Virus record (IMG/VR): IMGVR_UViG_3300045988_143600
DNA length: 37,650 bases
Source of the DNA: a virus
Direction: 5' to 3' (one strand)
The position numbers were made by a program, and so were the translations under genes. A model generated the notes under the pieces. It saw only the letters and a program-made list of their open reading frames with translations. It ran no database searches and was not told the origin of the DNA. Shown here in pieces: positions 8,668 to 24,580 of this stretch. The first letter of the stretch is position 1; every line of letters begins with the position of its first letter.

Positions 8668-8747
8668 TAGTACAATAATGTACTACCGACATATATAATA
8701 TACCCCATTTTTGTACTATTGTCAATAGAACAATTATGTACTATGAT
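8668..8747 (+). promoter_or_regulatory. Promoter/operator region of the XRE repressor gene
   Basis: Palindrome TAGTACAATAATGTACTA at 8668-8685. Near-palindrome TTGTACTATTG-T-CAATAGAACAA at 8711-8733, overlapping a TTGTCA -35 (8719-8724). After a 17-nt spacer comes TATGAT (8742-8747). A further TGTACTA lies at 8737-8743. Confidence 0.55.
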
Positions 8748-8777
8748 ATAATTTGTATAAATAAACAAATAAGTGAG

Positions 8778-9083: not shown

Positions 9084-9317
9084 ATGTTTGGTTTAGACAA
9101 GACTTTAGCATATATACTTATAGGACGAATTATCATAGATGCGTTAATCTTTTTGCTTATTATTTATCTAATCTGCAAATTTCTTGACCTTTGCAAAACT
9201 GTTAATGATCTTTCAAAGAGGAACAAGGAGCAAACGGAACTATTGAAACAGCAGAATGAAACGCTTGTGAAACTAGGGCAAATCATCATAAAGATAAACC
9301 AAGACAAAGACGGATAA
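9084..9317 (+). CDS. Small membrane protein with C-terminal coiled coil
   Basis: TM segment LAYILIGRIIIDALIFLLIIYLI. Translationally coupled to the XRE gene (TAAATG). Confidence 0.55.
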   Translation: MFGLDKTLAYILIGRIIIDALIFLLIIYLICKFLDLCKTVNDLSKRNKEQTELLKQQNETLVKLGQIIIKINQDKDG

Positions 9318-9329
9318 CAAATCACAATC

Positions 9330-9698
9330 CACACTTCAAGCCGTCGCCTAAACGGCGAGGATACAAAGTGCTGACCACTACGGATTAAAGTTGAGAAGCG
9401 GTGCTTGTTTGTAGCTCCGATATGACACAATCAGAACAAAGGGAACGCACAGCCTTGCGACAGTGTGCAGACCTGCACCCCAGAGGTGGGCGCGTGGCGA
9501 TGTCACACAAAGTTTTTCACTGCGTTCAAAACTTTGGCGACCGCCACTCAGGCAGGGGGCAGGCAAGGCGCACAGCACAGCTTTGTGCGCCCTGCACCCT
9601 CAACATTTAATGCTTCGGACATAAAAAACGCCCTGCGCACTTCGTGCGTGGGCTTGGGGTGGTAGAGGTCGTCGGTTCAAATCCGGTCACTCCGACCA
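9330..9698 (+). ncRNA. GC-rich structured non-coding island (candidate ncRNA or host-derived att arm)
   Basis: Nested perfect helices at 9494-9499/9542-9547, 9508-9516/9528-9536 and 9567-9574/9584-9591. A UUCG-type capped stem at 9632-9652 has G-U pairs valid only on the plus strand. CTGCACCC is repeated at 9473-9480 and 9592-9599. No convincing ORF is present. Confidence 0.3.
9655..9698 (+). other. tRNA-like 3' fragment / minihelix (T-arm, acceptor 3' strand, discriminator, CCA)
   Basis: GTCGG-TTCAAAT-CCGGT (T-arm) followed by CACTCCG-A-CCA. TGGGGTG at 9655-9661 can pair with the acceptor 3' strand. No D arm or anticodon arm is present, so this is not an intact tRNA. Confidence 0.45.
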
Positions 9699-9707
9699 AT
9701 ATGTAAA

Positions 9708-9742
9708 AACGGCTTTCCGCTATTGTGGAGAGCCGTTTTTTT
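9708..9742 (+). terminator. Rho-independent terminator directly after the tRNA-like CCA end
   Basis: 11-bp stem AACGGCTTTCC / GGAGAGCCGTT (one G-U pair) with an 8-nt loop, followed by a T-run. Confidence 0.75.
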
Positions 9743-9777
9743 AGTTGAATAGTGCTAAAGATTTTCACAAGTAAATA

Positions 9778-9948
9778 TTAATCATCATAACAAGGTACAG
9801 AGCAATTCTCACAAGCAGGAGAATCTGTAAGATAAAATATACATTCCTCACAGTGGGCATAACAACAACAGTTATCATAATCGCATACCTTATCGGCACA
9901 TTCGCCATGGTCAGTATTTTCTTTACACCAAAAATTAAACTCTTTCAT
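9778..9948 (-). CDS. Cys-rich small protein (56 aa)
   Basis: MKEFNFWCKENTDHGECADKVCDYDNCCCYAHCEECIFYLTDSPACENCSVPCYDD. AAAGGAG RBS precedes the ATG at 9948. It resembles the ORF at 1900..2064. Confidence 0.5.
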   Translation of the reverse strand: MKEFNFWCKENTDHGECADKVCDYDNCCCYAHCEECIFYLTDSPACENCSVPCYDD

Positions 9949-10000
9949 TTTAAAAGCTCCTTTATTATTCAAATTTGAGATTATTCACAGCTTTGCACAT
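9943..10000. repeat. 58-bp direct repeat, copy A (partner at 10202..10259, 2 mismatches)
   Basis: TTTCATTTTAAAAGCTCCTTTATTATTCAAATTTGAGATTATTCACAGCTTTGCACAT. It duplicates the last codons of the integrase gene plus the RBS and start of the next ORF. Confidence 0.9.
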
Positions 10001-10207
10001 TCAGAAATCATTTTGAGAAAAACGCTCCTTGAGTTTTTTACGATTGACGATATACAACTCAGACAGGCTACACATTGAATTCATCAGAAGTCGACGTAAT
10101 TCATCCATATCAGCAGTAACGCACATACGATTTATAGAACCTTCGAGCAAATCAGCGAGATTCATAGTTTCTTTATGTTTTTGCTCCGTATAAAATTTAC
10201 TTTTCAT
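10001..10207 (-). CDS. Hypothetical small protein (68 aa)
   Basis: This ORF lies between the two 58-bp repeats. It has the same RBS and MK start context as 9778..9948. Confidence 0.45.
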   Translation of the reverse strand: MKSKFYTEQKHKETMNLADLLEGSINRMCVTADMDELRRLLMNSMCSLSELYIVNRKKLKERFSQNDF

Positions 10208-10259
10208 TTTAAAAACTCCTTTATTATTCAAATTTGAGATTATTCACAGCCTTGCACAT
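10202..10259. repeat. 58-bp direct repeat, copy B
   Basis: Partner of 9943..10000. Covers the integrase 3' end (…CKAVNNLKFE stop). Confidence 0.9.
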
Positions 10260-11114
10260 CTGATTAAAATTGCTATGTACATAACGCTGGGTAGTTGTTA
10301 TATCAACGTGTCCGAGCAATGCTCTAAGGGTTTCAATATCTGCACCGCACTGAATAAGATACGTAGCATAGCTATGTCTAAGCTTGTGCGGGGTGAGATA
10401 CTGTAAATCAGGATACTTTGTTTTTTGTTGCTCATAGAACGTTCTATAGAGCCTGTTATAACGTCTAAGAGATATTACTGTATGCGTTATAGGTGAAACG
10501 AACAGAAAGCCGTCTGAAACGTCCTGAGAGCGTATCTGATGAAGAATAGCTATTGCATTACTATGCAAGGGGATAAGCCTATCACGGCGAGATTTTGTGG
10601 TCTGTACAATCCTATCACCGCATGAAGTATGTACGAGTGTCTGACAAACTTTAAGATATCTGTTATCAAGGTCAATGTTATCCCAACTAAGAGCGAGAAG
10701 TTCACCACGGCGGAGACCTGTCTACAAGTCAAGCTGAAACATTCTGCAAACTCTACTATCATCATCAAAGAGATGTACGAGATTATCGGGGCTAAAATAT
10801 TCAGCTTCTTTTTTTATACGTTTTGGAGGTTTAATATAGTCGCAAGGGTTTTTGTCACAATAACCATTAACTATAGCTTCACGGAATACACGTTTAAGTA
10901 AGAAATATGAACGTCTTTGGCGGTCATTACTGTAAGATAGGGTGGATTTAAGACAATTCTGAATATCAATAGGCTTTACGCTCAGAAGCTCCATATCGGC
11001 TATATAACCGAAGTGTTTTTGATTTATATAGTAATAGTCCTTATAGCAATCATAGGCTATCACATCAACGCAGTATGCGTTATAGAACATCTCAAACCAT
11101 TCTTTAAAAATCAT
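10224..11114 (-). pseudogene. int: Tyrosine recombinase/integrase interrupted by a single in-frame TAG (10719..10721)
   Basis: The two track ORFs, 10722..11114 and 10224..10568, are in the same frame. Reading through gives ...MFQLDL*TGLRRGELLALSWDNIDL...HKLRHSYATYLIQCGADIETLRALLGHVDITTTQRYVH, which contains the R...HxxR...Y catalytic signature. Confidence 0.75.
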
Positions 11115-12112
11115 AGGACATCATCATTTCCATTCTCTTTAAGATATTGAAGTATATCATTGCAGTTCTTTTCGACTTGACTTGAAAAGGTGAAACTACT
11201 TTCATACTGATAACAGACATTAGCACGAGGGGGAGAAACTATCGGCAAATCGTCTTTAAAGTCTGAATTGCAAAAGATCTCTTTAGTTTTGCGGACAATG
11301 TTCTTGCTACTCCAGAAGAATTTGCCGAATATCTTCTTTACGTCCTTTGTTATGTACTTAGTGACATAGAAAGCTAAATTAGACATTTGTCCGTAAGTCT
11401 GAATAGCGGTTGAGAAACCATAACGCCAATCAGACACGTTATACACAACAGGCAAATCAGATATATCACAGCCGAGTTTATCACATATATGCAGGCGCTT
11501 TATAGTATCTATTTTAAGGGGCTTGTCATGACCCTTAACAAGACGTGTACCACTATCAACGAACTTAAAGTCACAATCGTTTATAAGGGCGTGGCAATGT
11601 ATACCGCCTTTTTTGTGATACTCAGGAACTAAGATATATTTAAGCCCTTTTCTACTAACTGCATTTTCAAGCCATTTTTTCAAAGGCTTTATGACTTCTT
11701 TAGGGTTTGTGCGGTCAAGGTTATCGCCATTAAAGGTAATAGTAAGGAAGTATTTCCAATCATTTTGATAAACTATATCAAAGATACTTTGCTTTGCTCT
11801 TTGAACACTATCGGAACGAACTTCACCGCTTTGTGACTGCTTATCTTTAAACTTACGAGTATCAAGCATATCAAGCATTATGTTTCCGTTTTCGTCCTCA
11901 TACTCAAAATAACATATGTAATTTTCACGAGCCGTTTTAAGTTGCTCTTGTCTTGAACGTTCGTCAATACTATGCTCATGCTTGCAGTGATACTCAAATG
12001 CAGGGTCTTTAAATATGTGTCGATCAGAACGTGTTATAGTGTAACTGCCGTCACGATATTCCTTTATCTTTGTATTGCACTTGACCTCTTTAGAAGACAT
12101 TTTTAGGGACAT
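11111..12112 (-). CDS. HUH rolling-circle replication initiator (Rep)
   Basis: Motif 1 is FLTITF, motif 2 (HUH) is GGIHCHALI and motif 3 is YVTKYITK. GGGAG RBS. Confidence 0.75.
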   Translation of the reverse strand: MSLKMSSKEVKCNTKIKEYRDGSYTITRSDRHIFKDPAFEYHCKHEHSIDERSRQEQLKTARENYICYFEYEDENGNIMLDMLDTRKFKDKQSQSGEVRSDSVQRAKQSIFDIVYQNDWKYFLTITFNGDNLDRTNPKEVIKPLKKWLENAVSRKGLKYILVPEYHKKGGIHCHALINDCDFKFVDSGTRLVKGHDKPLKIDTIKRLHICDKLGCDISDLPVVYNVSDWRYGFSTAIQTYGQMSNLAFYVTKYITKDVKKIFGKFFWSSKNIVRKTKEIFCNSDFKDDLPIVSPPRANVCYQYESSFTFSSQVEKNCNDILQYLKENGNDDVL

Positions 12113-12148
12113 TTATATCAACTCCCATTTATTAGGTGAGTGCTTTTT

Positions 12149-12223
12149 GTGGCTAATATCAAGTAATAGCCACACGCACCGCAGGGCGGCGCAAGCGCTC
12201 GCCCCTGCGGTCGCTCGTGGCTA
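12149..12223. promoter_or_regulatory. GC-rich hairpin cluster, candidate rolling-circle origin or packaging hairpin
   Basis: Alternative stems TGTGGCTA (12149-12156) / TAGCCACA (12167-12174) and TAGCCAC (12167-12173) / GTGGCTA (12217-12223). The second pair encloses CCGCAGGG (12179-12186) / CCCTGCGG (12203-12210). This is the only GC-rich stretch in an AT-rich element, and it lies between the Zot-like stop and the Rep start. Confidence 0.5.
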
Positions 12224-13015
12224 TACGCCACGCCTTTTTCGCAGGTTTCTGCTTGTCTTTCTATCGTGCATGATGTCACTTGTGACATCTACTCCACGAT
12301 TGGCAAGTATTTCCGTGTCGCTGATGTACTCCTTATCAAGCATATTATCTACAAGCTGAGAAGTATCATATAGCTGTCGACTCTGATTAGTCTGCAAATA
12401 CAAACGGCTGTAAAGCTTTTTCGGCATATATGACTTATTCTCCGTATACGCTTCATACTCGTCTATATCATAGGTTTTAACCTTAATAAGACGTGTATAA
12501 GGGTGATGGAATGTAGCACGGCACGTTGACACTGTAGCCGTTATATCTCGTATCTGTTTATCAAGTAGATTAAATCGTTGCACTGTAGCAAGTATCATCA
12601 TTTTGCGCTTTCTACATTGACAAAGGTGCTGAAAAAGCGGTTTAGAGACGGCTCTTTTACCACCTGAGAAATCTCGTGAATTGAAGATAGTGCCTATCTC
12701 ATCAATTACGACTATACAATTCTTAGGAGCGTGCAGGATATCTTGTGCGGAATTAAGCTTATAAATATTCGTCCACTCAGGGAAGTTTTGAAGATTGATA
12801 TTTGTAAGTATAGACAACTGAGGATAACGCACGCAATAGTTATATGCTATCTGAGCAAGGGTTGAGGTTTTACCTGTTCCGAATTTACCGGTATAAAGAT
12901 GTATGCCCCAACCTTGAAAGATAGCGGAATTATTGAAGTATGCACCAAAAAGGTGGTCATATACCTCATAGGTGATAAAGGGCGGTATTTGTTTTATGTA
13001 GTCAAATATAATCAT
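12221..13015 (-). CDS. pI/Zot-like P-loop morphogenesis ATPase
   Basis: Walker A is GKFGTGKTS and Walker B is CIVVIDEIG. Size and position after the small TM genes are as in inoviruses. No clear C-terminal TM segment was seen, so the assignment is by family resemblance and context. Confidence 0.6.
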   Translation of the reverse strand: MIIFDYIKQIPPFITYEVYDHLFGAYFNNSAIFQGWGIHLYTGKFGTGKTSTLAQIAYNYCVRYPQLSILTNINLQNFPEWTNIYKLNSAQDILHAPKNCIVVIDEIGTIFNSRDFSGGKRAVSKPLFQHLCQCRKRKMMILATVQRFNLLDKQIRDITATVSTCRATFHHPYTRLIKVKTYDIDEYEAYTENKSYMPKKLYSRLYLQTNQSRQLYDTSQLVDNMLDKEYISDTEILANRGVDVTSDIMHDRKTSRNLRKRRGV

Positions 13016-13025
13016 AACAAATCAC

Positions 13026-13235
13026 CTACACAGCACTTGCACAACGTGTCATGCGTATCATCACATTATAAAAGAACTTGCAGAAGATACAAAGCATAAC
13101 CACAGCGAATATAAATGCCATGCCGAGGAGCAAAGCGTCATATCTATTCATGACTTCTTGCGAGAGATCACAGCCCATTGACTTCAAAAGCTGAAAAAAT
13201 GGGTTATTTTCATCAAACACTATGTGTACTTTCAT
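13026..13235 (-). CDS. Small membrane protein
   Basis: 69 aa, with the TM segment ALLLGMAFIFAVVMLCIFCKFF. Confidence 0.45.
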   Translation of the reverse strand: MKVHIVFDENNPFFQLLKSMGCDLSQEVMNRYDALLLGMAFIFAVVMLCIFCKFFYNVMIRMTRCASAV

Positions 13236-13449
13236 TATCGTTCACCTCACAATCATCAGTTTCAACCGCAGGAACGGCTTTTATTTCAACATCTTCACCG
13301 AACATAAGAAACTCTATAAGCTGTTTTCTGTTTCCGCTGAACTCATGTTCAGCTTTAAAGTTTCTAAGGTCAGTGAAGAAACCTATAACACCGCTTATAG
13401 TACAAACCATAAAGCAGACAACGAGTATAAACAAAACCAAGTTAAGCAT
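13213..13449 (-). CDS. Small membrane protein (78 aa from ATG 13449)
   Basis: A strong AGGAGG RBS precedes MLNLVLFILVVCFMVCTISGVIGFF. Confidence 0.5.
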   Translation of the reverse strand: MLNLVLFILVVCFMVCTISGVIGFFTDLRNFKAEHEFSGNRKQLIEFLMFGEDVEIKAVPAVETDDCEVNDNESTHSV

Positions 13450-13453
13450 TTTT

Positions 13454-13528
13454 CTACCTCCTAACGAGCCATACAAGAGAAAGGACCATAAGAGCAACGA
13501 GGACAAATAAAACAATATTTACTAACAT
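13454..13528 (-). CDS. Tiny hydrophobic peptide (24 aa), pVII/pIX-like by size only
   Basis: Hand translation gives MLVNIVLFVLVALMVLSLVWLVRR. It is tightly packed between neighbouring ORFs and is too short for confident calling. Confidence 0.3.
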   Translation of the reverse strand: MLVNIVLFVLVALMVLSLVWLVRR

Positions 13529-13535
13529 AATAAAC

Positions 13536-13700
13536 CTACTTTCTAAGCATAAAATATAATAAAGTCAAGCTGATTGATAAAAGCATACCGCCTATAATAG
13601 CCGAACCGAGAGTAAAACTGTATTTGCCAAATGGAAACGTATAAGACATACAGTTCATCAGGAATTTAAAAACTAATTCAATACCATGTATTATATCCAT
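13536..13700 (-). CDS. Small membrane protein (54 aa), pVI-like position
   Basis: Hand translation gives MDIIHGIELVFKFLMNCMSYTFPFGKYSFTLGSAIIGGMLLSISLTLLYFMLRK. The GAGGTGA RBS overlaps the stop of the pIII-like gene. Confidence 0.45.
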   Translation of the reverse strand: MDIIHGIELVFKFLMNCMSYTFPFGKYSFTLGSAIIGGMLLSISLTLLYFMLRK

Positions 13701-13708
13701 AATTCACC

Positions 13709-15463
13709 TCACGTAGGTAAAACAAGCTTGATAAGCGCAATAGCTAAGAACAGCACAAACCATGCAGAGAACACAGCATAAAACCATGACGGCAAACAAG
13801 AAAGAGCGGCGGTGAGAAAATCCCAATATGTACCCGTTGTACTGAATATAGATTTTATATCCGTGAAATCAACAGAGCCGAAATTTGCATTAATTTTTTT
13901 CTTATCAAGATATTTGTTATAATCATCAGGTTGCATATATGAACCATCATTTATAACACCATCTGAACCCTTAGCAAGGTCAACGTCAGTGACCTTTGAC
14001 GGCGGTATATTACACAAGTCTTTAAGCTTTGTAGTCGAGGGATTATAAGTATTTCCGTCCTTGTCTTTATATACTTTAGGTACATAATCAGGAAACTTCT
14101 CATAAGAGAAAGGGTCTGAAATAACAGAATAAACACGATAAGCCTTGAATGTTTCAGGCTTGCCTGTTTCTTCATCAACGGACTTTACAAAATCATCAAT
14201 CTTCTCACACGTCTTAAGGTTTGTAAAATCTTCTTGATAGGCATACGAGCCGAGCCACGTTGAAGAATTTGTATCTTCTGTTTTTTCACCATTCTGAGGA
14301 GTAACATGACCGTTATTCTTTACAAATACACCGATAACATTAACATAAAGCTTGCTATCATCAGTAAGACCATGTGTTTTATAATCAATAGAAGTGAGAT
14401 CAAAAGATACAGTAATCTTGCCGTCACGAGGAATAGTATAAATAGGCGTTCGACCTTGATATAATGTTAAATACGGCTCAAAAGTATCAACAGTATCATT
14501 ACTATTCAAATCGTCAGAAGAAGAGCCGTCAGACTTAATTTTTTCATCATCTTGACCCTTGTAGTAATTGCCGTCATGGTTCATTGCATAAAGCACAACA
14601 TCTTCATCAAAGAAACGTTGTAGATCATCACCAGCGTTAAGAAGATTTTTTGAAAGACAACATAAAACGGCATAAGTGCCAGAGCCGTAAGCTTTTCCTA
14701 AGTCTTTTTCATTGAACGTTTTTAAAAACTCAGGTGAAAGCTTTATATCAAGGTTTATATTATTATTTTCAGCTGCTACAAGTCCATTTTCATCAGCATT
14801 AGCACCACCCTTTGACGGATAGTAAATTTTATTTTGCATATTCAATGAAAGTTCAGGTGTATATGTAACAGTAAACGGAGCAGGAACAACGGTGGGGTCT
14901 GTAGGGGTTACATCTTTATCAGGGTTAGACCAATCATAAACCTTAGCATTATGATAATAAACATAGGTATCAGCACCATTATCAGAATCGACACCAACGT
15001 GCATAGCAACACCGCAACTAACACTGGATATATCACCTATATTGGCAGAAAATTCAAAAAGACTAGATTGAGCTTTAAATACAAGTTGATTTTTATCATT
15101 ATAGCGATAAACATACCGATATGTTTTGTTGTCATCAGAATGACGATGATAATTTGAAATATAAAATTGTGATTGATTCAAAGTATCTATATCACCGCCG
15201 CTCAAATTAAGGTAAAATTTTTGAACAGTGTCAGGAACAAGATATATAAGAGAGTACTCTTTGCGGTTAGGCGAATAAAAGGCTATATATGAATCGGGTG
15301 TAAAACCCAAGTCAGAATTTATTTTTTTCAACGCCATATCAATAAAAAGTTTCATACCACCAGAACCATCAGACTGCTTTAAAGCGAATGCAGGAACAGC
15401 ACAACATATCATCACAACAAGTGCAGAGATCATACACAACACTTGCTTAATCTTTTTTCTCAA
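13709..15463 (-). CDS. pIII-like minor coat/adsorption protein (signal peptide plus C-terminal membrane anchor)
   Basis: The N-terminus MRKKIKQVLCMISALVVMICCAVPAFA is signal-like. The C-terminus WFYAVFSAWFVLFLAIALIKLVLPT is a membrane anchor. It is the largest ORF and follows the coat gene, as gene III does in Ff-type phages. TTG start. Confidence 0.55.
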   Translation of the reverse strand: MRKKIKQVLCMISALVVMICCAVPAFALKQSDGSGGMKLFIDMALKKINSDLGFTPDSYIAFYSPNRKEYSLIYLVPDTVQKFYLNLSGGDIDTLNQSQFYISNYHRHSDDNKTYRYVYRYNDKNQLVFKAQSSLFEFSANIGDISSVSCGVAMHVGVDSDNGADTYVYYHNAKVYDWSNPDKDVTPTDPTVVPAPFTVTYTPELSLNMQNKIYYPSKGGANADENGLVAAENNNINLDIKLSPEFLKTFNEKDLGKAYGSGTYAVLCCLSKNLLNAGDDLQRFFDEDVVLYAMNHDGNYYKGQDDEKIKSDGSSSDDLNSNDTVDTFEPYLTLYQGRTPIYTIPRDGKITVSFDLTSIDYKTHGLTDDSKLYVNVIGVFVKNNGHVTPQNGEKTEDTNSSTWLGSYAYQEDFTNLKTCEKIDDFVKSVDEETGKPETFKAYRVYSVISDPFSYEKFPDYVPKVYKDKDGNTYNPSTTKLKDLCNIPPSKVTDVDLAKGSDGVINDGSYMQPDDYNKYLDKKKINANFGSVDFTDIKSIFSTTGTYWDFLTAALSCLPSWFYAVFSAWFVLFLAIALIKLVLPT

Positions 15464-15480
15464 TTTATCAACTTCCTTTC

Positions 15481-15517
15481 AAAAAAATTAAGCGGAGCAA
15501 TTTGAATTACTCCGCTT
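15481..15517 (-). terminator. Rho-independent terminator between the coat gene and the pIII-like gene
   Basis: The minus strand reads AAGCGGAG-(12 nt)-CTCCGCTT followed by AATTTTTTT. The placement is analogous to the terminator after gene VIII in Ff phages. Confidence 0.65.
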
Positions 15518-15533
15518 ATGTAAATGGTTTTGC

Positions 15534-15689
15534 TTATACAGCGTGTCTGAACTTTGCGAAAAGTCCTGCACCAGAGCCGAGAAGAGACAGACCTACAAGA
15601 ATTGCAATAGGTACGTTGCTTGTCATAGCGTCCCAACAAGAACCAAAAACAGTAACGGCATTACTAAGCATTGTTGTTACAGCTTCCAT
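15534..15689 (-). CDS. pVIII-like major coat protein (51 aa), below the ORF-track cut-off
   Basis: Hand translation gives MEAVTTMLSNAVTVFGSCWDAMTSNVPIAILVGLSLLGSGAGLFAKFRHAV. It has an acidic N-terminal part, a single TM helix and a basic C-terminus (K, R, H). AAAGGAG RBS. Confidence 0.6.
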   Translation of the reverse strand: MEAVTTMLSNAVTVFGSCWDAMTSNVPIAILVGLSLLGSGAGLFAKFRHAV

Positions 15690-15743
15690 TATTAGCAAAA
15701 CTCCTTTCTTATTAAATTTTTATAACAGCGGTTTCACCGCTAA

Positions 15744-16061
15744 TTATTTTGTGTTGCGGTGAAGTGTTCCGTCTGCATTGATTACGGTGATATCAACAAG
15801 CTGAGAACGTCCGTTAAAAATCTGATAGTTCAGCATTACATCACAGCCGAGAAGCTTATTGAAATCCTCAGAATTTCCGTTAAGTCTGATTGCATTTTCG
15901 GTCGGTATTTTCAGTGTATCGACCATTTTTCCATGACAGTCGGGGTTATCAACTTCCTGCAGAAGCTGAAAGACGACCTTTTCAGGGCTGTTTATCTGCT
16001 TGCCCTCTATAACTCCGTTAAATGCTTTCTTTTTTGTCCAGCCTACGATAGTTGTTTTCAT
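15744..16061 (-). CDS. First gene of the structural operon; possible gene V-like ssDNA-binding protein (by position and size only)
   Basis: 105 aa from the ATG at 16061 (MKTTIVGWTKKKAFNG...). It lies upstream of the coat gene, as gene V does. No motif-level support is available. Confidence 0.35.
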   Translation of the reverse strand: MKTTIVGWTKKKAFNGVIEGKQINSPEKVVFQLLQEVDNPDCHGKMVDTLKIPTENAIRLNGNSEDFNKLLGCDVMLNYQIFNGRSQLVDITVINADGTLHRNTK

Positions 16062-16097
16062 GTTTTTTTCCTTTCTGAGGTTTTTCGGCTTTTCCTC

Positions 16098-16150
16098 TGA
16101 TGTTTGACAAGCAAAATCCAAAAAACTGACAAGCAAAACGCAAAAAAGTG
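16098..16150. repeat. Mu-like right terminal inverted repeat with tandem TGACAAGCAAAA sites
   Basis: TGATGTTTGACAAGCAAAATCCAAAAAAC starts with TG. TGACAAGCAAAA occurs at 16105-16116 and 16127-16138. ACGCAAAAA (16139-16147) is mirrored by TTTTTGCGT near the left end. Confidence 0.75.
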
Positions 16151-16191
16151 ATGAAATGTTTCAACAAAACGAAACACTCATCACTTTTTTT
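16142..16191. terminator. Bidirectional terminator-like hairpin just inside the phage right end
   Basis: 13-bp perfect outer stem AAAAAAGTGATGA / TCATCACTTTTTT with inner stem GTTTC/GAAAC. Flanked by A- and T-runs. Confidence 0.7.
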
Positions 16192-16221
16192 GAATTATCG
16201 AGAATTTTTGAAACGTATTTT

Positions 16222-16413
16222 TTACAGCTCTAAAATGTCATTTAAATCGCATTTTAAAAATCTGCAAATCAGCTCAAGATGTGAAAATTTGAAACCGACA
16301 GCGATGTTATTGCAAAGCTGTGAGATTGTGGACGGTCTGATGCCTGTCGCCTGCGCAAGTTCAGCCTGAGTAATGCCCCTGGAATTAAGCAAAGCCCTTA
16401 ATTTTACTCTCAT
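16222..16413 (-). CDS. Small XRE/Cro-type HTH protein (last gene at the phage right end)
   Basis: LRALLNSRGITQAELAQATGIRPSTISQLCNN is an HTH motif. GGAGG RBS. Confidence 0.65.
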   Translation of the reverse strand: MRVKLRALLNSRGITQAELAQATGIRPSTISQLCNNIAVGFKFSHLELICRFLKCDLNDILEL

Positions 16414-16440
16414 GATTACCTCCGGTATGTTTTTTACAAC

Positions 16441-16465
16441 ATAAATAACGAAATCCGTTATTTAT
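16441..16465. promoter_or_regulatory. Perfect 10-bp inverted repeat upstream of the small HTH gene (operator-like)
   Basis: ATAAATAACG-AAATC-CGTTATTTAT, located between the Dam stop and the HTH start. Confidence 0.45.
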
Positions 16466-16480
16466 TCTCTAAAAAAAATA

Positions 16481-17218
16481 CTAGAAATTTGTGATTATTA
16501 CCTCTTTGAAATCACCTGATGAAAGACTGTTATTGCGGGTGACCGCCTGAATATTGTAGTCTTTATACAGGTCTCTCACATACTTGTCATCGTTGTACGA
16601 CAGTACAAATCTGCCCTTGATCTGGTGAAGAACTCTGCAGAGCCGCTCATGGTCATCCTCGGTAAATTTAACAGTGTAATGCCGCTCTGTCTTGTGGTAT
16701 GGAGGGTCGCAGTAGAATAAAGCTTTCTCACGGTCGTATACCTTGATAAGATCCTCAAAATCTTTGTTTTCGATCACTACTCCATCCAGTCTTGCCTCGA
16801 TATCTGCGAAATTATCTGTGTTAAGCCGCTTTTTGTTGCAGCCGAACGTTCTCAGACTTGCTCCGAAGCCTGTCTTGACAAGCACATAGAACATAGCAGC
16901 CCGCTGAATGTCTGTAAATCCGGTTACAGATATGCGCTCACGGCAGTCAAGGAACATTTCCCGGCTGTTTAAATAGTATTTTATCTCCTTTTTAAGCTCA
17001 TCAGAATGATATTTTAAGCATCTGAAAAAGTTGACCAAATCACTGTTGGCGTCATTATAGATCTCTAGATCAGCGTGTTTGCCTTTTGCAAAAAGTATAG
17101 ACCCGCCTCCGCCGAATACATCGATAAATCTGTTGTAGCTTTCAGTAGGCGGGAAAGACTTGATGATCTTACTTTTAAGCTGGCTCTTTCCACCAATCCA
17201 TGGTATTGGACTTTTCAT
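16481..17218 (-). CDS. dam: Dam-type N6-adenine DNA methyltransferase (D12 class)
   Basis: N-terminal PIPWIGGKSQL, FGGGGS (AdoMet binding) and the catalytic DPPY (FYCDPPYHKT). Confidence 0.85.
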   Translation of the reverse strand: MKSPIPWIGGKSQLKSKIIKSFPPTESYNRFIDVFGGGGSILFAKGKHADLEIYNDANSDLVNFFRCLKYHSDELKKEIKYYLNSREMFLDCRERISVTGFTDIQRAAMFYVLVKTGFGASLRTFGCNKKRLNTDNFADIEARLDGVVIENKDFEDLIKVYDREKALFYCDPPYHKTERHYTVKFTEDDHERLCRVLHQIKGRFVLSYNDDKYVRDLYKDYNIQAVTRNNSLSSGDFKEVIITNF

Positions 17219-17279
17219 AAATATGACCTCCTTTTAATATAGTATACAGCTCCGAGCGGATTGCCCGGAGCTGTTACTT

Positions 17280-17507
17280 TTAAATCTTTTTAAGCCAATC
17301 AGCAACAACATAATAATGCTTGCGACCAAGCTTGATTTTTCTCCAGTAGTGACTGTGATGAAATTCATAAAAATCATCAGCGACTTTTACCGGAGTATTA
17401 TCTTCGAGAACGCCAACGATCGTTCCGGCGGTGAAGTTGCAATCGCTCCTGTAATTAAGCCTAGTGACTGTCACCATTTGGCTGTATGATGTTTCTTTTG
17501 TATCCAT
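17280..17507 (-). CDS. Stand-alone SH3b-like domain protein
   Basis: 75 aa. VTRLNYRSDCNFTAGTIVGVLEDNTPVKV...WRKIKLGRKHYYVVADWL fits a bacterial SH3 pattern. It lies downstream of the endolysin. Confidence 0.45.
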   Translation of the reverse strand: MDTKETSYSQMVTVTRLNYRSDCNFTAGTIVGVLEDNTPVKVADDFYEFHHSHYWRKIKLGRKHYYVVADWLKKI

Positions 17508-17518
17508 AAGCTACTCCT

Positions 17519-18394
17519 TTACTTTATCGTTGCAGACAGCTTTTTAATAAATTTAGTCCCCGCAATACCGTTCTGAGTATAGCCCCACTTTTTCAACAGA
17601 GCATTGACCGCCTTTAGGGTACCGTCTCCGAACGTGCCGTTGTTGTCAAGTTTGTACCCTGCCAGCATAAGGAGCTGTTTCAGTGCAAGAACTCCATCGG
17701 ATTTATCACCTTTCTTAAAGCCCGAACTGTCAAGTACCTTAGACGTGCTTGTGTTAGTAGCCTTAAACCCGTTAAGCCCCTTAGCCTTTATCACAGATGG
17801 GTAATCCACATAGCAGTAATCCATGTCTACCGGCACGGAAACACCGCTGACCTTGCCCGTTGAACTGTACTGCCACATACCGTATGTGCCGCCGTAGTTG
17901 CACTTGCTGTTGTATTCTGCAATCCACAGTGCATAGCGTCTTGCGACATCATTTGTTATGTAAGTCTGGAGCGGACTGCGGCTGATATACAGACCTGCGA
18001 AGTAGCCTGCTTCCTCCAGCGCAGTGCAAAAAGTTTTTACCATGTCGGAGCATACCGTTTTACCGCGTGCAAAAGCTTTCTGCCACTCCAGATCAAAGTA
18101 AATCGGGTATTCAAAAGTTTTGCCCTTGATGTAATCGAGACAAAGAACTGCGTCCTGTTTCGCACCGGATACCGTTGTCTGCCATGTATAGTAATATGCA
18201 CCGACGTCAAGCCCAGCTGCCTTTGCATTTTTGTAATGCGTTTCAAAAAGCGGGTCTTTTACTACACAGTTCTTCGTGTGATCCCAGTTATTGCATCTGA
18301 TAATAACAAAACTGTAGCCCGCCGCTTTGACCTTTGCGAAATCTACGTTTGTCTGATACATAGAAACATCAATGCCTTTAATTGTCGCTGCCAT
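17519..18394 (-). CDS. Endolysin: GH25 muramidase with C-terminal peptidoglycan-binding domain
   Basis: The N-terminal KGIDVSMYQTNVDFAKVKAAGYSFVIIR is characteristic of GH25. The C-terminal GDKSDGVLALKQLLMLAGYKLDNNGTFGDGTLKAVNALLKKWG is PG_binding_1-like. Confidence 0.85.
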   Translation of the reverse strand: MAATIKGIDVSMYQTNVDFAKVKAAGYSFVIIRCNNWDHTKNCVVKDPLFETHYKNAKAAGLDVGAYYYTWQTTVSGAKQDAVLCLDYIKGKTFEYPIYFDLEWQKAFARGKTVCSDMVKTFCTALEEAGYFAGLYISRSPLQTYITNDVARRYALWIAEYNSKCNYGGTYGMWQYSSTGKVSGVSVPVDMDYCYVDYPSVIKAKGLNGFKATNTSTSKVLDSSGFKKGDKSDGVLALKQLLMLAGYKLDNNGTFGDGTLKAVNALLKKWGYTQNGIAGTKFIKKLSATIK

Positions 18395-18590
18395 GATAAT
18401 TATCCTCCTTGTTATTTTTATAGTTTTTCTGATACTGCGTGCCGAAATAGAACGATATCACCACAGTAAACACCGTGATGAACTGCTCTGCTGAAATCGT
18501 GCGGCGCAGTGCCAGCACGCAAAACACCGCTGTCAACAATATCGTCACGATAGACTTGACGTCTATAAGCTTTGCAAATTTCTGTTTCAT
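18378..18590 (-). CDS. Holin (two TM segments)
   Basis: 70 aa, with TM segments IVTILLTAVFCVLAL and FITVFTVVISFYFG and a charged C-terminus. It lies immediately upstream of the endolysin and overlaps it. Confidence 0.7.
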   Translation of the reverse strand: MKQKFAKLIDVKSIVTILLTAVFCVLALRRTISAEQFITVFTVVISFYFGTQYQKNYKNNKEDNYHGSDN

Positions 18591-18597
18591 ATCTTGC

Positions 18598-19284
18598 TCA
18601 CTCCTTTATCTCAAAAGCAAATCTGCTTAACAGATATTTCTTGCCGTTAAGCAGCACTGTCTGCGTGGGCACTGCATAATCAGGATAGTAGTCGCTGTCA
18701 TTCTGCCCCGATGTGTGTGAAAGAATGTGATAAAGGTTTGTAAAGCCTTTGTTCAAAGTCGACGATGTCACAGGTGTGAAAGAGGTCAGCCACTTGCGCC
18801 GACACACAGGTCTGACAGGCACAGACTTTATCGTCATTCCGTCAGTAAATACAGAACATAACCGTATGTTGTTGTCTGCACAGCTTGTTGCCAAGCCGTA
18901 CCCCTTTTCCTGCGTTTCATAGTCTGTTACCTCGCCGATAACGATGTTAATGCCTGGGCGGTCATTCTGATTGCCGTCAATGCCTATGGCTGCCAAGCCG
19001 TCCTGTTTGTATATGACCCAACGCCTTTTTGGAGAGATGTTGCTATAAGTTCCAACACATGGACAAGTCAAATCTTCCGTTCGCAGGTCAATCCAGCCGT
19101 TTGTTCCCGTGTCGCTGAATTGACCACGCAGAAACACCTCATCAGTGACCCACAGATTGAATACAACATCATTCGTGCTGAGTGTTGCACCCTCGCCCTC
19201 ATAGACTATCTTTTTAAAGTCCCACACCTCGATAAGCTTTGTTATCAGCCCTCTCAGTCCGTCTGTGCCCTCATATATTTTCAT
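18598..19284 (-). CDS. Tail-tip / putative receptor-binding protein
   Basis: 228-aa ORF, the last of the tail module before the lysis cassette. The function is inferred from position only. Confidence 0.4.
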   Translation of the reverse strand: MKIYEGTDGLRGLITKLIEVWDFKKIVYEGEGATLSTNDVVFNLWVTDEVFLRGQFSDTGTNGWIDLRTEDLTCPCVGTYSNISPKRRWVIYKQDGLAAIGIDGNQNDRPGINIVIGEVTDYETQEKGYGLATSCADNNIRLCSVFTDGMTIKSVPVRPVCRRKWLTSFTPVTSSTLNKGFTNLYHILSHTSGQNDSDYYPDYAVPTQTVLLNGKKYLLSRFAFEIKE

Positions 19285-19480
19285 CTTCGACCGCCTCCGC
19301 TATGCCTGTTATACCTATATTTCCGTACGCTTCTCCCACTGACACTCCCACAAGGCTCTGTCCGCTCGCCATATCGGGTATAGTGTCGATAATATCCATA
19401 TTGCCGTTGAAGTCCTCGATGCTGAACCTGTCCGACCTGTCGGGCTTTTTAAGTCCGAGATTTTCCGTGAAACTAGCCAA
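19271..19480 (-). CDS. Small tail fibre-associated protein
   Basis: The N-terminal FTENLGLKKPDRSDRFSIEDFNGNMDIID pattern is common at tail-fibre N-termini. Confidence 0.45.
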   Translation of the reverse strand: MASFTENLGLKKPDRSDRFSIEDFNGNMDIIDTIPDMASGQSLVGVSVGEAYGNIGITGIAEAVEDENI

Positions 19481-20054
19481 CTATACTTCCCCCTTCCGCA
19501 TTTTTGCCGACTATGAGATAGTACACCTTGAAAGCGTATGTGCCGCCCTGGTCTGAGGTGTGCTCAAGGTATGCCTCCCAGTCGATGTCCCTGCTGTTGC
19601 TTGCGACTTTGTATTGAAAACTCTGCGACTTGAAGTGCTTTTTGCCCCAGTCGCACACCATAAACACCGCAGGGTTAGTGACCCCCGAGGGTATCATGCC
19701 TGTGCGTGTATTGTAAGTCCATTGTGAGCCGTTGTCGGCGTTGACCTTCATATTCACCGTGAAAGACCCCCACCGCATATACAGTGGGTAGAGCCTGTTC
19801 ACAAGACTTACTATCTGCGCCGCTGTCTTTGCACGAAACACCGCTGTACCGCCGTCTAAAAGCTCGTCCGTCTGTTCGCCCGAGTACCGCAGCTCATACT
19901 CCTCCTCGCCGACTATTTCTTCAAGTGCCGCCACTCTCGCCGTAAGCTGCTGGATAAGCTCCTCGGTGGTGGGCGTTGTCTGACCTGTGTCTGCTGTATC
20001 GGCAGTTTTCTCCGCCTGCGTATCAGCTACAGTTGTTATCTCGTTCTCGTCCAT
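19473..20054 (-). CDS. Tail fibre / tip protein with coiled-coil segment
   Basis: Low-complexity T/A/D-rich N-terminus, then EELIQQLTARVAALEEIV. Located in the tail module. Confidence 0.45.
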   Translation of the reverse strand: MDENEITTVADTQAEKTADTADTGQTTPTTEELIQQLTARVAALEEIVGEEEYELRYSGEQTDELLDGGTAVFRAKTAAQIVSLVNRLYPLYMRWGSFTVNMKVNADNGSQWTYNTRTGMIPSGVTNPAVFMVCDWGKKHFKSQSFQYKVASNSRDIDWEAYLEHTSDQGGTYAFKVYYLIVGKNAEGGSIVG

Positions 20055-20065
20055 AATCTCGCCTC

Positions 20066-21226
20066 CTAAAGCTGTTCTTCCACAGACAGACCCACCGCAG
20101 AAATATCGGCTGAAAGTCCGCCGTCAAAATTGAATCCTATGTTAGTTATTGGTATATCGTAGCTTTCGCCGCTTTCGCTGACGTATGTTATCACGTCCCC
20201 GACGTCAAATCGTGGGTCGCCAAGGCGGTGAAAAAGCTCCGTTGTATACCACGAAAAGCCGCCTATCCTATGCCACAATGACCGCAGCAGCGACATTGTC
20301 ATATATGGATTTTCAAACTCCAGCACACGCCCTGCCGAGCCTGTGGTATTGCCCAGCCGCAGAGTTTCGCTGTCGCTGACCTTACAGACAATGCCTGCCA
20401 AAACATTCGGACGTTCTCCCAGTGTTGGCAGGTCGATAGTGTTGTTGTCCAGTATCTTCACGCTCGAGCCGTACCATTTGCGGACGTATCTGCCGTATCG
20501 GTCAACAAAACTGAACTCGCCTTGTGCCGAAGCTATGTAACTGAGCATCTGCCGCATTGTGGTGTCTTTGGGTATAGAGCTTATTTTGAAGTCGAAGTTT
20601 GCAGTTTTCAGCCTTATGTGACCCTTGCCGTAAAGCCTTGCACCGCCCTTTACACGGAGCTTTGCAGGGATGGTGTAGTCGTTGCCGTTTTGCAGTCCAA
20701 GCTGCTTGCATATGTCGTCCTCGACAGCCTTTGACCACGCAGGTAGCTTGACCTTTGGCACATAGGTCTTGTCGGAGAAGTAAAGCCTATCCGCAAAAGT
20801 GACCTCAGTATTTCCGCCCGACTTTTTCGATTTCACGCAGGTGAACCGCCCCAGAGGTATTCTCTCTCCGTCAAGCACCTCTCCAAGCTTGCTTATCTGC
20901 TCCACTGTCAGCTTTGAAAGTTCTGCGTAGGTGTAGGCTTCTAGGGTGGAGTAGGTGGTCACGCCTGTGAGGTCTGCAAGGTACAGGGACAGGTCATACT
21001 CTTTGCCGAGGAAACGTGTTTCAGCATCGTTTATCTGTAATGCCCAAGACTGTGAGCACACTGCACCAAGCTCTATGTCGTCACTGAGGCTCGTTGACTG
21101 CACGTCACTGGTAGCGGACATTATGTTGTCCCCCATTATTACGCTCTCGTCGTTTTCAAGCCACATACGCCATGTGCGGCAGTAGCTTTCGATGCGTGAG
21201 GAGACGGTTGTACTTGTTGTATACAT
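20066..21226 (-). CDS. Tail-associated protein (Tal position)
   Basis: 386-aa ORF, the second gene after the tape measure. Assigned by synteny only. Confidence 0.5.
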   Translation of the reverse strand: MYTTSTTVSSRIESYCRTWRMWLENDESVIMGDNIMSATSDVQSTSLSDDIELGAVCSQSWALQINDAETRFLGKEYDLSLYLADLTGVTTYSTLEAYTYAELSKLTVEQISKLGEVLDGERIPLGRFTCVKSKKSGGNTEVTFADRLYFSDKTYVPKVKLPAWSKAVEDDICKQLGLQNGNDYTIPAKLRVKGGARLYGKGHIRLKTANFDFKISSIPKDTTMRQMLSYIASAQGEFSFVDRYGRYVRKWYGSSVKILDNNTIDLPTLGERPNVLAGIVCKVSDSETLRLGNTTGSAGRVLEFENPYMTMSLLRSLWHRIGGFSWYTTELFHRLGDPRFDVGDVITYVSESGESYDIPITNIGFNFDGGLSADISAVGLSVEEQL

Positions 21227-21237
21227 ATATCCGCCTC

Positions 21238-21606
21238 CTACTGCATGATAAGGTCAACAGCAACGCCTTTGCAAAACTGCCGCTTTTCGTCCCAGCCGAA
21301 TATTTCATAGCTTGGATCTCCTGCATAGACCCTTATTTTGATTTCATTAAAAGTCTCGTCCAAAAGTGTGGCGTTAAAAAATGGGCTATCAACATTTGAG
21401 ATATACTTATTTATCTGTGCAGTCTGCTCGCCTGTGAGATGATACCATTTAATAGTGACCGTTTTCTTTATAGCCCTGATGTCTCCGACCATAAGACAAT
21501 TAGCGGTGCGCCCTGCATTGCCCGACCAGATTTTATTGTTACAAAAAGTAATTTCAGCAGGAGTGGCTACCGTTTCTTCTTCAAATTTCAATCCATTTGA
21601 TTTCAT
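21238..21606 (-). CDS. Small tail component (distal tail protein position)
   Basis: 122-aa ORF immediately after the tape measure gene. It is shorter than a canonical Dit. Confidence 0.45.
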   Translation of the reverse strand: MKSNGLKFEEETVATPAEITFCNNKIWSGNAGRTANCLMVGDIRAIKKTVTIKWYHLTGEQTAQINKYISNVDSPFFNATLLDETFNEIKIRVYAGDPSYEIFGWDEKRQFCKGVAVDLIMQ

Positions 21607-21616
21607 AGTATCCCTC

Positions 21617-24580
21617 CTATACTTTTATCGGCGATTTGCCGTTGCGCTTGATAAAATCATTTATATCGTCAATAACGATCTGTGACAGCACTCTGCCCTT
21701 TACTTCGATTGGTATCGTTACGCTTATTTTCTGATTGCCTACAGCTCCGCCGTAAACAGCAAGCGCCTCAAACAAAGCCTGCTTGATCGTATCCAGCGGA
21801 GCTTCGATGTTTGTGCCGCGTTTCTGGTCGCCGAGAACCGCAAGAAACTCGGAGTTCGGCGGAATTACCGCGCCGGTGGCGAGCATTGGAATCTGAGGAA
21901 CTGGTATAGGGTCATAGTCCCAAAACTCATCAAATGGTGTAAAGCCTGCTATTTCAATATCACGAATATCATTAAGTATGCCATTAAGAAAATCCAGTGG
22001 AGTAGAAATAACTTTATTTATTCCGCCAATTATGCCGTTTACAACCGTTGTGAATACTCCTGTTATACCCTCTTTGATACCGTCAAAAATTTTGCCACCA
22101 GTCGAAAATACGTCCTTAACTGCTTGCCAAGCCTTTGAAAATATATCTTTAAACCAATCAGCTACCTTAATAAACGGTGATTTTATTGCAGTCCACAAAT
22201 CCCTGAAAAATTGTGCTGTAGCCGAAAACGCCGATTTTATATTTGTCCACGCAGTTGTAAATATATCTCCAAACCAACTTCCTACTGCAGAAAAAATGTC
22301 TTTGATTCCTGTCCACAGATTTGAGAACCAACCTATAACGGCATTCCAGACAGACAAAATACCGTCCCAAGCTGCTTGGAAAATTCCCGTAAACCATTCT
22401 GCCACGACGGCAAATACATCTTTTATGCCTTGCCATATTCCGGCGAAAAAGTCTTTAATTGATGTCCAGACCTCTGTTACCCAGTCTACAAATTGCTGTA
22501 TGGTCATTTTAAAGCTGTCCCACAAATCAATAAAAAACTGTTTTACTGTTTCCCAATTTTTGTACAGCAATACGCCGATAGCGATAAGCGCACCGATTCC
22601 TAGACATACAAGTGTGATTGGACTCGTCAAAAAATTAACTGCTACACCAAGTGCAGTAATTAACGGTGTCAATACACTTGTTCCTGCCGCCAATGCGGCA
22701 AATGCACTTACTACGCCTTGAATTATTCCGGATATTGCAAATGCCGATCCCAAAGTCCCAACTACAACAGCAAAATTTTCGACAGCAGTCTGATGATTCT
22801 TTATCCAGTCACTAACCCCATTTAAGGCTGATGTAATACCTTTCAACGCGCCTACTATAATACCTCCGGTCCATGTTGCAATAGGCTTCAAAAATTTATC
22901 CCACAGCCATTTACCCATAGGTTTTAACGCTGAAATTGCTGAATCAAGAACTTTTATAGCTGCCGCCAGCAAATTAAGAAATGTTGGTATCAAAGTACTT
23001 ATAGTCCATGATGCCATAGGGAGCAAAATATTATCCCAGAACCATTCGATACCGTCAAATATGTCGGCAGTTAAAGGCTTTAATGCGGATGTTACATTTT
23101 CAAATGATGTAATGAGAGGTGAGAAGTCAATGTTCTGCGCCCATTCAACAGTGTCTGCCGTTATGTTTTCAATTGTGTCGAGTATATCATTAAAAATATC
23201 AAGAATGTCCTGAATAATTTTTGTACCACTGCTATCAGACCAAGCGGAGGAAAAATTGCGTGACACATATCCGATTGTATTATTAATGTTTGTCCATATA
23301 CCGAGTAAATGTTCAGAAATTTGTTCGCCCGTTCCGTTACTCCAAACATCGGTGAATGATCCGCCTATGCTTTTGATAACACTCCATACACCCTCGAAAG
23401 CAAATCTCATACTATCTGTTACCTTGACTCCATTTTTATCCCAAGCTTGTTTAAATGGCGTAAAAATAGTATTAAAAGATGATTTTACCCAATAAAAAAA
23501 ATCTTTAAGCTTTTTATCGGCATCAGATGTATCAACATCTACAGTAGTGGAGATCGTATTGCCGCTTAGAGTACCGACCACTGGCGATGCATTTGTATCA
23601 GATGAGGAACTGTTGTCCGCCAGCTTATTTATCTGATCAAAGCTTGCAAGTGCATTTTCTTGAGCCTCGACAGTAGCTTCAGCCGATGTTGCCATATCGG
23701 AATAATTTTCCACCGCCTGCGAAGAACTTTCAGCAACTCCATCTGTTGTATTCATCAGTTTAATTCCAAACACCTCAGAAAGTGCTTTAACTGCTGAATT
23801 AGCAACAGCTGTCAAACTTTGCAATTCCGCTGTTATGTTTTTTACAACTGTTACAGCACCAGAAAGAACAGGCTGTCCTATTACAGCAAGCAACTGTTTC
23901 CAAGACTCTTTCAGATTACCGATGACATTTTCCCAGCCGTCTGCTTCTCGCGCGGCTTGTCCCTCCGCTCCAGAAAGAGCATTTGCATCCTTGACCATTT
24001 GCAATAGTGTAAGTTGCTTCTGAGCTTCGGATAATTCCATAAATGATTTTCCATAGAGTTTATTAGCCGCTGTGTTTCGCGTAGTTTCTGTACAACTCAA
24101 ACCCAAAGCAGCATCGTTTTCAAAGTTGCCTTTCAAGAACGATTTTAGGCTTTCTGCAGTATCTTCAAGGCTTCGATCGTAATATGCCGCACTGTCTGCT
24201 GTTACCTGCAACGCTTCTTCCATCATTTTTAGAGCACTAACTGAATCCATACCCGTAGTTTTAGCAAAAGCATAAATAGATGTGCCTACATTTTGAAGTC
24301 TTGTCTGAAGAATGCTACTGTTATCAGCTACACTTTTCATAGCATTATCTGCAGCAGATTTTAAAGTTCCAAAAGTCTGTTGCATTTGAGAATTTGCAGC
24401 ATTTATATCTGCAGCAGCTTCAAGAGCTTCTTTTCCACTGAACACAGTACCAAGTGCTGCACCCATTTTTAAAACTATATTTCGGAGATTATTAAGCTGG
24501 TTACCTAAACTGTTTATACCTTTGGAAAATCCTTTTGTATCTATTTTTGTATCGAAATTAAGTCTGCCGTCAATTGCCAA
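21617..24580 (-). CDS. Tape measure protein
   Basis: 987 aa. N-terminal helical region, central glycine/hydrophobic TM-like block (…GALIAIGVLLY…) and repeated W/F-x-D/N-I-F motifs. It is the largest gene in the tail module. Confidence 0.9.
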   Translation of the reverse strand: MAIDGRLNFDTKIDTKGFSKGINSLGNQLNNLRNIVLKMGAALGTVFSGKEALEAAADINAANSQMQQTFGTLKSAADNAMKSVADNSSILQTRLQNVGTSIYAFAKTTGMDSVSALKMMEEALQVTADSAAYYDRSLEDTAESLKSFLKGNFENDAALGLSCTETTRNTAANKLYGKSFMELSEAQKQLTLLQMVKDANALSGAEGQAAREADGWENVIGNLKESWKQLLAVIGQPVLSGAVTVVKNITAELQSLTAVANSAVKALSEVFGIKLMNTTDGVAESSSQAVENYSDMATSAEATVEAQENALASFDQINKLADNSSSSDTNASPVVGTLSGNTISTTVDVDTSDADKKLKDFFYWVKSSFNTIFTPFKQAWDKNGVKVTDSMRFAFEGVWSVIKSIGGSFTDVWSNGTGEQISEHLLGIWTNINNTIGYVSRNFSSAWSDSSGTKIIQDILDIFNDILDTIENITADTVEWAQNIDFSPLITSFENVTSALKPLTADIFDGIEWFWDNILLPMASWTISTLIPTFLNLLAAAIKVLDSAISALKPMGKWLWDKFLKPIATWTGGIIVGALKGITSALNGVSDWIKNHQTAVENFAVVVGTLGSAFAISGIIQGVVSAFAALAAGTSVLTPLITALGVAVNFLTSPITLVCLGIGALIAIGVLLYKNWETVKQFFIDLWDSFKMTIQQFVDWVTEVWTSIKDFFAGIWQGIKDVFAVVAEWFTGIFQAAWDGILSVWNAVIGWFSNLWTGIKDIFSAVGSWFGDIFTTAWTNIKSAFSATAQFFRDLWTAIKSPFIKVADWFKDIFSKAWQAVKDVFSTGGKIFDGIKEGITGVFTTVVNGIIGGINKVISTPLDFLNGILNDIRDIEIAGFTPFDEFWDYDPIPVPQIPMLATGAVIPPNSEFLAVLGDQKRGTNIEAPLDTIKQALFEALAVYGGAVGNQKISVTIPIEVKGRVLSQIVIDDINDFIKRNGKSPIKV

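Follow-up and report, generated by a model that had tools for sequence, protein, structure and literature searches.

The 37,650-nt window analysed here (the whole stretch of DNA of IMG/VR record IMGVR_UViG_3300045988_143600) consists of two unrelated phages, a Mu-type tailed phage nested within an inovirus by transposition. Position 16098 is almost certainly the right (attR) terminus of this 29,957-bp tailed phage, which was transposed into the control region of the inovirus. The window thereby provides an unusual natural example of a phage-inside-a-phage arrangement, the mechanism itself being textbook Mu-type DDE transposition.

The first 55 bases of the window are repeated exactly at its end, yielding a circle of 37,595 bp, and the length of 29,957 bp holds because of this circularity, with the tailed phage running from 16098 through 37595/1 to 8459. 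The segments, ends and junctions of the two phages are as follows.

1..8459, minus strand: left-hand 8.5 kb of the Mu-like phage (Pfam)
8431..8459, minus strand: left terminal inverted repeat including site L1 (8431-8452), TG at 8459; five IMG/VR contigs with differing flanks
8460..8464, unstranded: target-site duplication copy TCCTC outside the left end; single copy in the empty site
8460..16097, minus strand: target DNA, a 7.6-kb integrative inovirus (Pfam, PHROGs; 54 related IMG/VR contigs; Ruminococcus MAG prophages)
16093..16097, unstranded: target-site duplication copy TCCTC outside the right end; single copy in the empty site
16098..16126, plus strand: right terminal inverted repeat, opening 5'-TG, 23/29 versus the left end; flanks diverge here in 31 other contig groups
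16105..16126, plus strand: R1, putative transposase-binding site of 22 nt; homologous site at the BalMu-1 right end
16127..16148, plus strand: R2, second tandem 22-nt unit, 19/22 identical to R1
16098..37595, minus strand: right-hand 21.5 kb of the Mu-like phage (Pfam, PHROGs)
37596..37650, unstranded: 55-bp assembly overlap, identical to 1-55 (circular contig)

Read inward on the plus strand from 16098, the right terminus is TGATGTTTGACAAGCAAAATCCAAAAAAC, and the left terminus, read inward on the minus strand from 8459, is TGTTGCTCGCCACGCAAAATCCGAAAAAC. The two terminal repeats both open with TG and are identical at 23 of 29 positions; the TG...CA inverted termini of the original prediction are exact in coordinates and strings. 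An exhaustive scan of the circle returned this as the sole TG...CA pair with at least 23/29 inverted identity, and its 5-bp flanks match too. Among first-order Markov random sequences (n = 20), three gave an inverted pair at that level and none had the flank match as well. The 20-nt end motif ACRAGCAAAAYSCRAAAAAM, allowing up to three mismatches, occurs three times in the window against 0.15 expected, always at a terminus and pointing inward. The terminal pattern is far beyond chance.

At the right end, TGACAAGCAAAA occurs at 16105-16116 and again at 16127-16138, the positions at which a repeat recurring 22 bp inward had been reported, and these two copies are the starts of the tandem 22-nt units R1 and R2. 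Phage Mu has its R1 and R2 sites side by side at attR and a single site, L1, at the tip of attL. By their sequence, the R1 and R2 units at the right end and the single L1 at the left end are likely transposase-binding sites. Overlapping the inner edge of R2 is a perfect 13-nt inverted repeat, AAAAAAGTGATGA at 16142-16154 and TCATCACTTTTTT at 16178-16190, with a degenerate third site-like stretch, CAAAACGAAA (16165-16174), between its arms; together these may form an R3-type site or a regulatory hairpin.

The TCCTC pentamers lie in direct orientation immediately outside the two ends and had been read as a 5-bp target-site duplication, a reading supported by loci that lack the phage. The empty site ...GGCTTTTCCTCGTGCCTTT... 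was found in public contigs with a single TCCTC, and the predicted empty junction GGTTTTTCGGCTTTTCCTCGTGCCTTTAAATTTGTG is present in IMG/VR contig L001, where the blocks aligned to the left and right flanks of the window share precisely the 5 bp TCCTC. One TCCTC and no phage are also seen in the near-isogenic inovirus copies L207/L209, with flanks 100% and 99.97% identical to those of the window, and in L200 and L203, which are 99.8-99.98% identical. In all ten of the longest public assemblies carrying the first inovirus gene, the intergenic region is uninterrupted.

The same ends also recur on other flanks. The right-end 29-mer is present in 18 IMG/VR and 27 metagenome contigs (with no match in a scan of species-representative genome contigs), and the right end is joined to 32 distinct flanks including the window's own, each diverging exactly at the TG, revealing that the phage has inserted at many unrelated sites. 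For the left-end 29-mer, five IMG/VR contigs each show a different flank, giving six distinct left flanks when the window's is included. Three further 5-bp duplications were recovered: TCTGC, for which both ends lie on one 102.8-kb contig; TTTGC, from two contigs of one sample; and CTAAT, from contigs of different samples. The two ends on the 102.8-kb contig are exactly 29,957 bp apart, so that this second copy of the phage has the length originally proposed for the element. Homologous copies stop at both ends, with no colinearity beyond 16098 or 8459, and the occurrence of the phage at 31 other sites without the 7.6-kb segment upholds the proposal that 8460-16097 lies outside it.

In 26 of the 32 duplicated 5-mers, position 2 is a pyrimidine (P = 0.004), and in 26 of them position 4 is a purine (P = 2e-5); the result is a symmetric N-Y-N-R-N pattern with an A/T-rich centre. 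Mu itself has the target consensus N-Y-(G/C)-R-N, which the pattern of the 32 sites resembles.

The gene content of the element is that of a Mu-type tailed phage, with the following main genes.

2279-3202, minus strand: MuB-like ATPase, 307 aa (generic Pfam AAA_22 and AAA_30 only)
3206-5224, minus strand: MuA-like transposase, 672 aa (Pfam HTH_Tnp_Mu_2, rve, DDE_2, Mu-transpos_C)
7281-7982, plus strand: CI/S24 repressor (Pfam Peptidase_S24), divergent, adjoining the 8459 end
16222-16413, minus strand: small HTH protein, adjoining the 16098 end
16481-17218, minus strand: Dam-type methylase, adjoining the 16098 end
21617-24580, minus strand: tape measure, 987 aa (Pfam/PHROGs)
28645-29532, minus strand: major head protein (Pfam/PHROGs)
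30683-32353, minus strand: minor capsid protein (Pfam/PHROGs)
32353-33813, minus strand: portal (Pfam/PHROGs)
33810-35201, minus strand: terminase large subunit (Pfam/PHROGs)
35170-35637 and 36358-36915, minus strand: two terminase-small-subunit family matches (Pfam/PHROGs)

The label of right end given earlier to 16098 stands, because the repressor, MuA and MuB genes sit at the opposite (8459) end. Transposase matches in the PDB comprise the MuA transpososome 4FCY (E = 9e-16), MuA 1BCM and TnsB, and in the TnsB alignment the candidate D, D and E residues align within ADNH, FLDAKS and IERTF. Since the protein scores equally well against TnsB and against MuA, it is the Mu-specific Pfam domains, together with the phage context, that assign it to the MuA family. 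A Tn7-like (TnsB) transposon was considered and rejected, given the terminase, portal, head and tape-measure genes and the Mu-specific transposase domains. The MuB-like candidate fits MuB in position and size and matches generic models only; its equivalent in Bacillus phage BalMu-1 is annotated as a DNA transposition protein.

Two kinds of RNA element were also observed within the tailed phage. The early region contains two full-length type II hammerhead ribozymes, at 5493-5566 and 6149-6220, both on the minus strand (57.7 and 57.0 bits, gathering score 37), with the regulatory genes on one side and the transposase gene on the other. They are on the strand of the early operon, whose transcript they may process. 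A RAGATH-28 RNA motif at 35779-35870 (minus strand), which narrowly passes the gathering score (46.9 versus 45.3 bits), lies between a 160-aa antiterminator-like gene (35879-36361) and the terminase-small-subunit match at 35170-35637.

With Escherichia coli phage Mu, the element shares termini of the form 5'-TG...CA-3', the duplication of 5 bp at the target, targets that are near-random but favour Y at position 2 and R at position 4, the clustering of repressor, transposase and ATPase at the left end, and a DNA-modification gene at the right end. It differs in its host, here a Gram-positive gut anaerobe, in its genome size (30 kb versus 37 kb), in a transposase only distantly related to that of Mu (PDB 4FCY, E = 9e-16), in the A/T-rich centre of its target 5-mers and in carrying a Dam-type methylase instead of mom at the right end. 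Among annotated proteins, the transposase is closest to that of BalMu-1 (NC_030945; 35% identity over 96%), a phage with the same left-end gene order. The BalMu-1 right end, TGTAGCTCGGCTCGCAAAATGAGAAAAAATGACTTGCAAAATGAGAAAAATC, consists of TG followed by two GCAAAA...AAAAA sites spaced 22 bp apart and matches the left end of the present phage at 23 of 29 positions, so that comparison with the ends of related Firmicutes Mu-like phages, an earlier suggestion, reveals the same architecture. BalMu-1 nevertheless belongs to another host genus, has a 39.9-kb genome and shows no detectable nucleotide similarity to the present phage outside the ends. The same phage is found on the human-faecal contig MT835795, which matches it at 99.7% of nucleotides over 11.5 kb and encodes a transposase 99.3% identical to its own, but that record is partial and unannotated, and neither the ends nor the insertion context are described there. 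The tailed phage is an uncharacterised Mu-type transposable phage of human-gut Ruminococcus, unannotated copies of which are already public.

The DNA outside the tailed phage, 8460-16097, carries the following inovirus features.

8736-9083, plus strand: XRE regulator
9084-9317, plus strand: membrane protein, 77 aa
9653..9747, plus strand: attP core, comprising the 3' 46 nt of tRNA-Pro(GGG) (9653-9698) and a terminator, with phage DNA on both sides
10224-11114, minus strand: tyrosine integrase, carrying an in-frame TAG
10722..10724, minus strand: in-frame TAG truncating the integrase just before its catalytic TGLRRGE motif
11111-12112, minus strand: RCR Rep, G2P-type (REP_ORF2-G2P PF23343; PHROGs "rolling circle DNA replication initiation")
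12221-13015, minus strand: Zot/pI morphogenesis ATPase (Zot PF05707; PHROGs "protein I of M13")
13709-15463, minus strand: secreted protein, 584 aa
15534-15698, minus strand: coat-like ORF, 54 aa
15744-16061, minus strand: first operon gene, 105 aa, with its ATG at 16061

A Zot/pI protein and a rolling-circle Rep are thus combined in a 7.6-kb genome, within the 5-10 kb range of inoviruses and devoid of capsid and terminase genes, which places this segment among the inoviruses. It also has several small ORFs of membrane type. The 54-aa and 105-aa ORFs would fit a small hydrophobic major coat protein and an ssDNA-binding protein in position and size, with no family match, and Pfam and PHROGs searches with six small inovirus ORFs and the 584-aa protein returned no matches. 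The Rep is 91-99% identical in 53 IMG/VR contigs, with one additional distant match at 39%, and the product of the first inovirus gene is listed in 6,115 blocks of a public assembly index; among GenBank phages, the best match to the inovirus has only 70% identity over 289 nt. The tRNA/tmRNA search of the window returned no gene, the att core containing a tRNA fragment only.

This 95-bp core is the mark of the prophage boundary in related loci, and it is 98.9% identical to an empty attB in L079, beside a xylulokinase gene, in uncultured human-gut Ruminococcus MAGs. Related prophages with both ends visible run, in window coordinates, from 9766 up to 16097, continue directly at 8465 and end at 9747, with the TCCTC site uninterrupted. 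The segment 8460-16097 is an integrative inovirus of uncultured human-gut Ruminococcus, with Rep, Zot/pI and a tRNA-Pro attP, and constitutes a new identification. Like other integrative inoviruses of Gram-positive hosts, it combines Zot/pI, RCR Rep, a tyrosine integrase and an attP in a tRNA gene, and its relatives are gut Ruminococcus prophages; it differs from them in the 30-kb tailed phage within its control region and in its truncated integrase.

At 10722-10724, the integrase gene reads TAG where 53 related loci have TGG. Even so, 753 blocks of the public assembly index list the shortened 130-aa product, and carriers of it have also been found integrated, which suggests a widespread sublineage locked in place. 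We considered and dropped the idea that a dead integrase would oblige the inovirus to be episomal, as copies with the truncated integrase are found integrated. An episomal lifestyle for the lineage, based on its occurrence on short contigs only, was likewise dropped: in long related contigs, IS elements flank the prophage locus. These IS elements, with rve and/or DDE_Tnp_1 transposases, are seen beside the prophage at the tRNA-Pro locus in L200, L201 and L203, and probably explain why short-read contigs break there. In some Ruminococcus genomes (L199, L202 and L204), a second, different inovirus-like prophage with a 334-aa Rep and a 330-aa integrase lies beside the first (about 13000-20200).

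Further features of the inovirus DNA were observed around the att core. A GC-rich non-coding patch at 9335-9660, in otherwise AT-rich inovirus DNA, has strong ssDNA folding (z = -4.06) and fits a candidate origin or packaging region; an Rfam search of 9250-10000 gave no credible match. Between the attP core and the integrase, a direct repeat of ~70 bp (about 93% identity) occupies 9931-10000 and 10192-10259, its copies lying in and immediately before the 5' ends of a pair of small paralogous ORFs, each starting MNNKG.FKMK.

The insertion point lies 36 bp upstream of the first gene of the inovirus operon (ATG at 16061, minus strand). In the isogenic copy that lacks the phage, the best promoter-like site of this operon, TTGACA-17-TATATT (11/12), lies on the upstream side of the insertion point, and Mu, placed between this likely promoter and the first gene, would cut the operon off from it. 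On this reading of the sequence, the insertion would silence or re-wire the inovirus operon, which would now lie co-oriented downstream of the Mu late genes. A second independent insertion, on L019/L070 (IMGVR_UViG_3300045988_173332), lies inside the 77-aa membrane-protein gene of a related inovirus, at the equivalent of ~9197, and the Mu-like phage has the same orientation relative to the inovirus as in the window. A preference of the Mu-like phage for inovirus targets was considered and rejected, as only two of the 32 sites, the window among them, are of this kind, which is not significant.

The same composite of inovirus and tailed phage is found in about 20 or more other assemblies, and independent assemblies from ENA and Logan contain the 16097/16098 junction as well, 99.67-99.99% identical, so that it is not a one-off chimera; for the source sample of the window itself, support for the junction is indirect. 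These copies were retrieved through protein look-ups; the window-specific inovirus/Mu junction had no match in the JGI metagenome set. The composite is present in L206 (37,912 bp; three samples, with seven similar places listed), in L208 (38,085 bp; 18 similar places listed) and in L210 and L211, whose contigs stop short of the att core.

The preferred explanation of the 16098 junction, which we consider almost certain and with which no observation conflicts, is that the MuA-family DDE transposase and the MuB-like ATPase joined both 3'-CA ends of the phage to target cuts staggered by 5 bp, the repair of which duplicated TCCTC. The DNA that was entered is not chromosomal but the control region between genes of the 7.6-kb integrative inovirus, and the route was probably a conservative, infection-type insertion. 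That the ends are instead a coincidence or a chimeric join, and that the contig is one 37.6-kb phage or phage-plasmid, is exceedingly unlikely. Such a reading draws on the single-contig nature of the original observation and nothing more. Against it, the phage is found at 31 other sites that lack the 7.6-kb segment, in one case with the same length of 29,957 bp, and the segment is found on its own in all Mu-free copies inspected, which comprise most of its 54 relatives in IMG/VR and the longest of the public assemblies read; the chance expectation is also far below 1. Mu-type phages do replicate by replicative transposition, and Mu replicative transposition can release circles with one phage copy and adjacent DNA. 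The circle could therefore be a by-product of this process, either an intramolecular deletion circle or a resolved cointegrate, and not a simple insertion, but we regard this as very unlikely. A deletion circle would have unrelated flanks at its ends, not a duplication that restores a known empty site, nor would it hold exactly one complete inovirus closed at attP, and in many samples the insertion is the same and stably inherited. Our literature searches on Mu-like phages with inoviruses and on BalMu-1 found nothing relevant, and a saltovirus paper (PMC5977238) does not give the Mu target consensus.

Whether the 37.6-kb circle is itself a molecule is a separate question from the insertion. 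Its closure follows from the att core, which carries phage DNA on both sides as the attP junction of the inovirus, and we lean towards the circle being a physical molecule. The alternative, to which we give somewhat below an even chance, is that the insertion is real and the circle is not a molecule, the composite being integrated at tRNA-Pro and the assembler having looped through the 95-bp att repeat. In its favour, the two recurrences checked, L206 and L208, carry the composite at 99.99% identity and continue beyond it into the 5' part of the host tRNA-Pro, which shows that it is integrated there. The 95-bp att core also exceeds the apparent k of 55, and the attP junction was seen in no other contig examined, a gapped attP-specific pattern having no match in IMG/VR. 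The premature TAG of the integrase also agrees with an integrated copy, yet it decides nothing on the circle because the truncated variant is widespread and also found integrated. Against it, the 55-bp overlap lies within Mu, ~8.4 kb from its left end and outside the att core, as would be expected of de Bruijn assemblers for an isolated, unbranched cycle at k = 55; a loop on a branching att node should start and end at that node. That the circle is moreover a self-replicating hybrid, an inovirus replicative form with a whole Mu-like prophage maintained by the rolling-circle Rep, seems improbable to us; such a hybrid might even leave the cell as single-stranded DNA packed into an over-long filament.

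Transposable phages of the human-gut Ruminococcus group are, to our knowledge, poorly described, and prophage callers often mis-bound them. For one such uncharacterised Mu-type phage, the ends, size, target duplication and target bias are now fixed to the exact base. Beyond the exact ends and the target bias, the analysis adds the naming of apparent "host" DNA as an inovirus and the recognition of a recurrent natural composite. What appears as a "complete circular viral genome" can be two phages nested by transposition, which matters for virome catalogues, completeness scores and host assignment. If the hybrid molecule did exist, a tailed transposable phage would gain a plasmid-like or filament-borne second route of spread, and induction of Mu could drive inovirus genes, the Mu late genes and the inovirus operon being co-oriented. 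The isogenic empty and occupied copies of the inovirus constitute a natural before-and-after pair in which to study how a tailed phage and a filamentous phage interfere within the same host.
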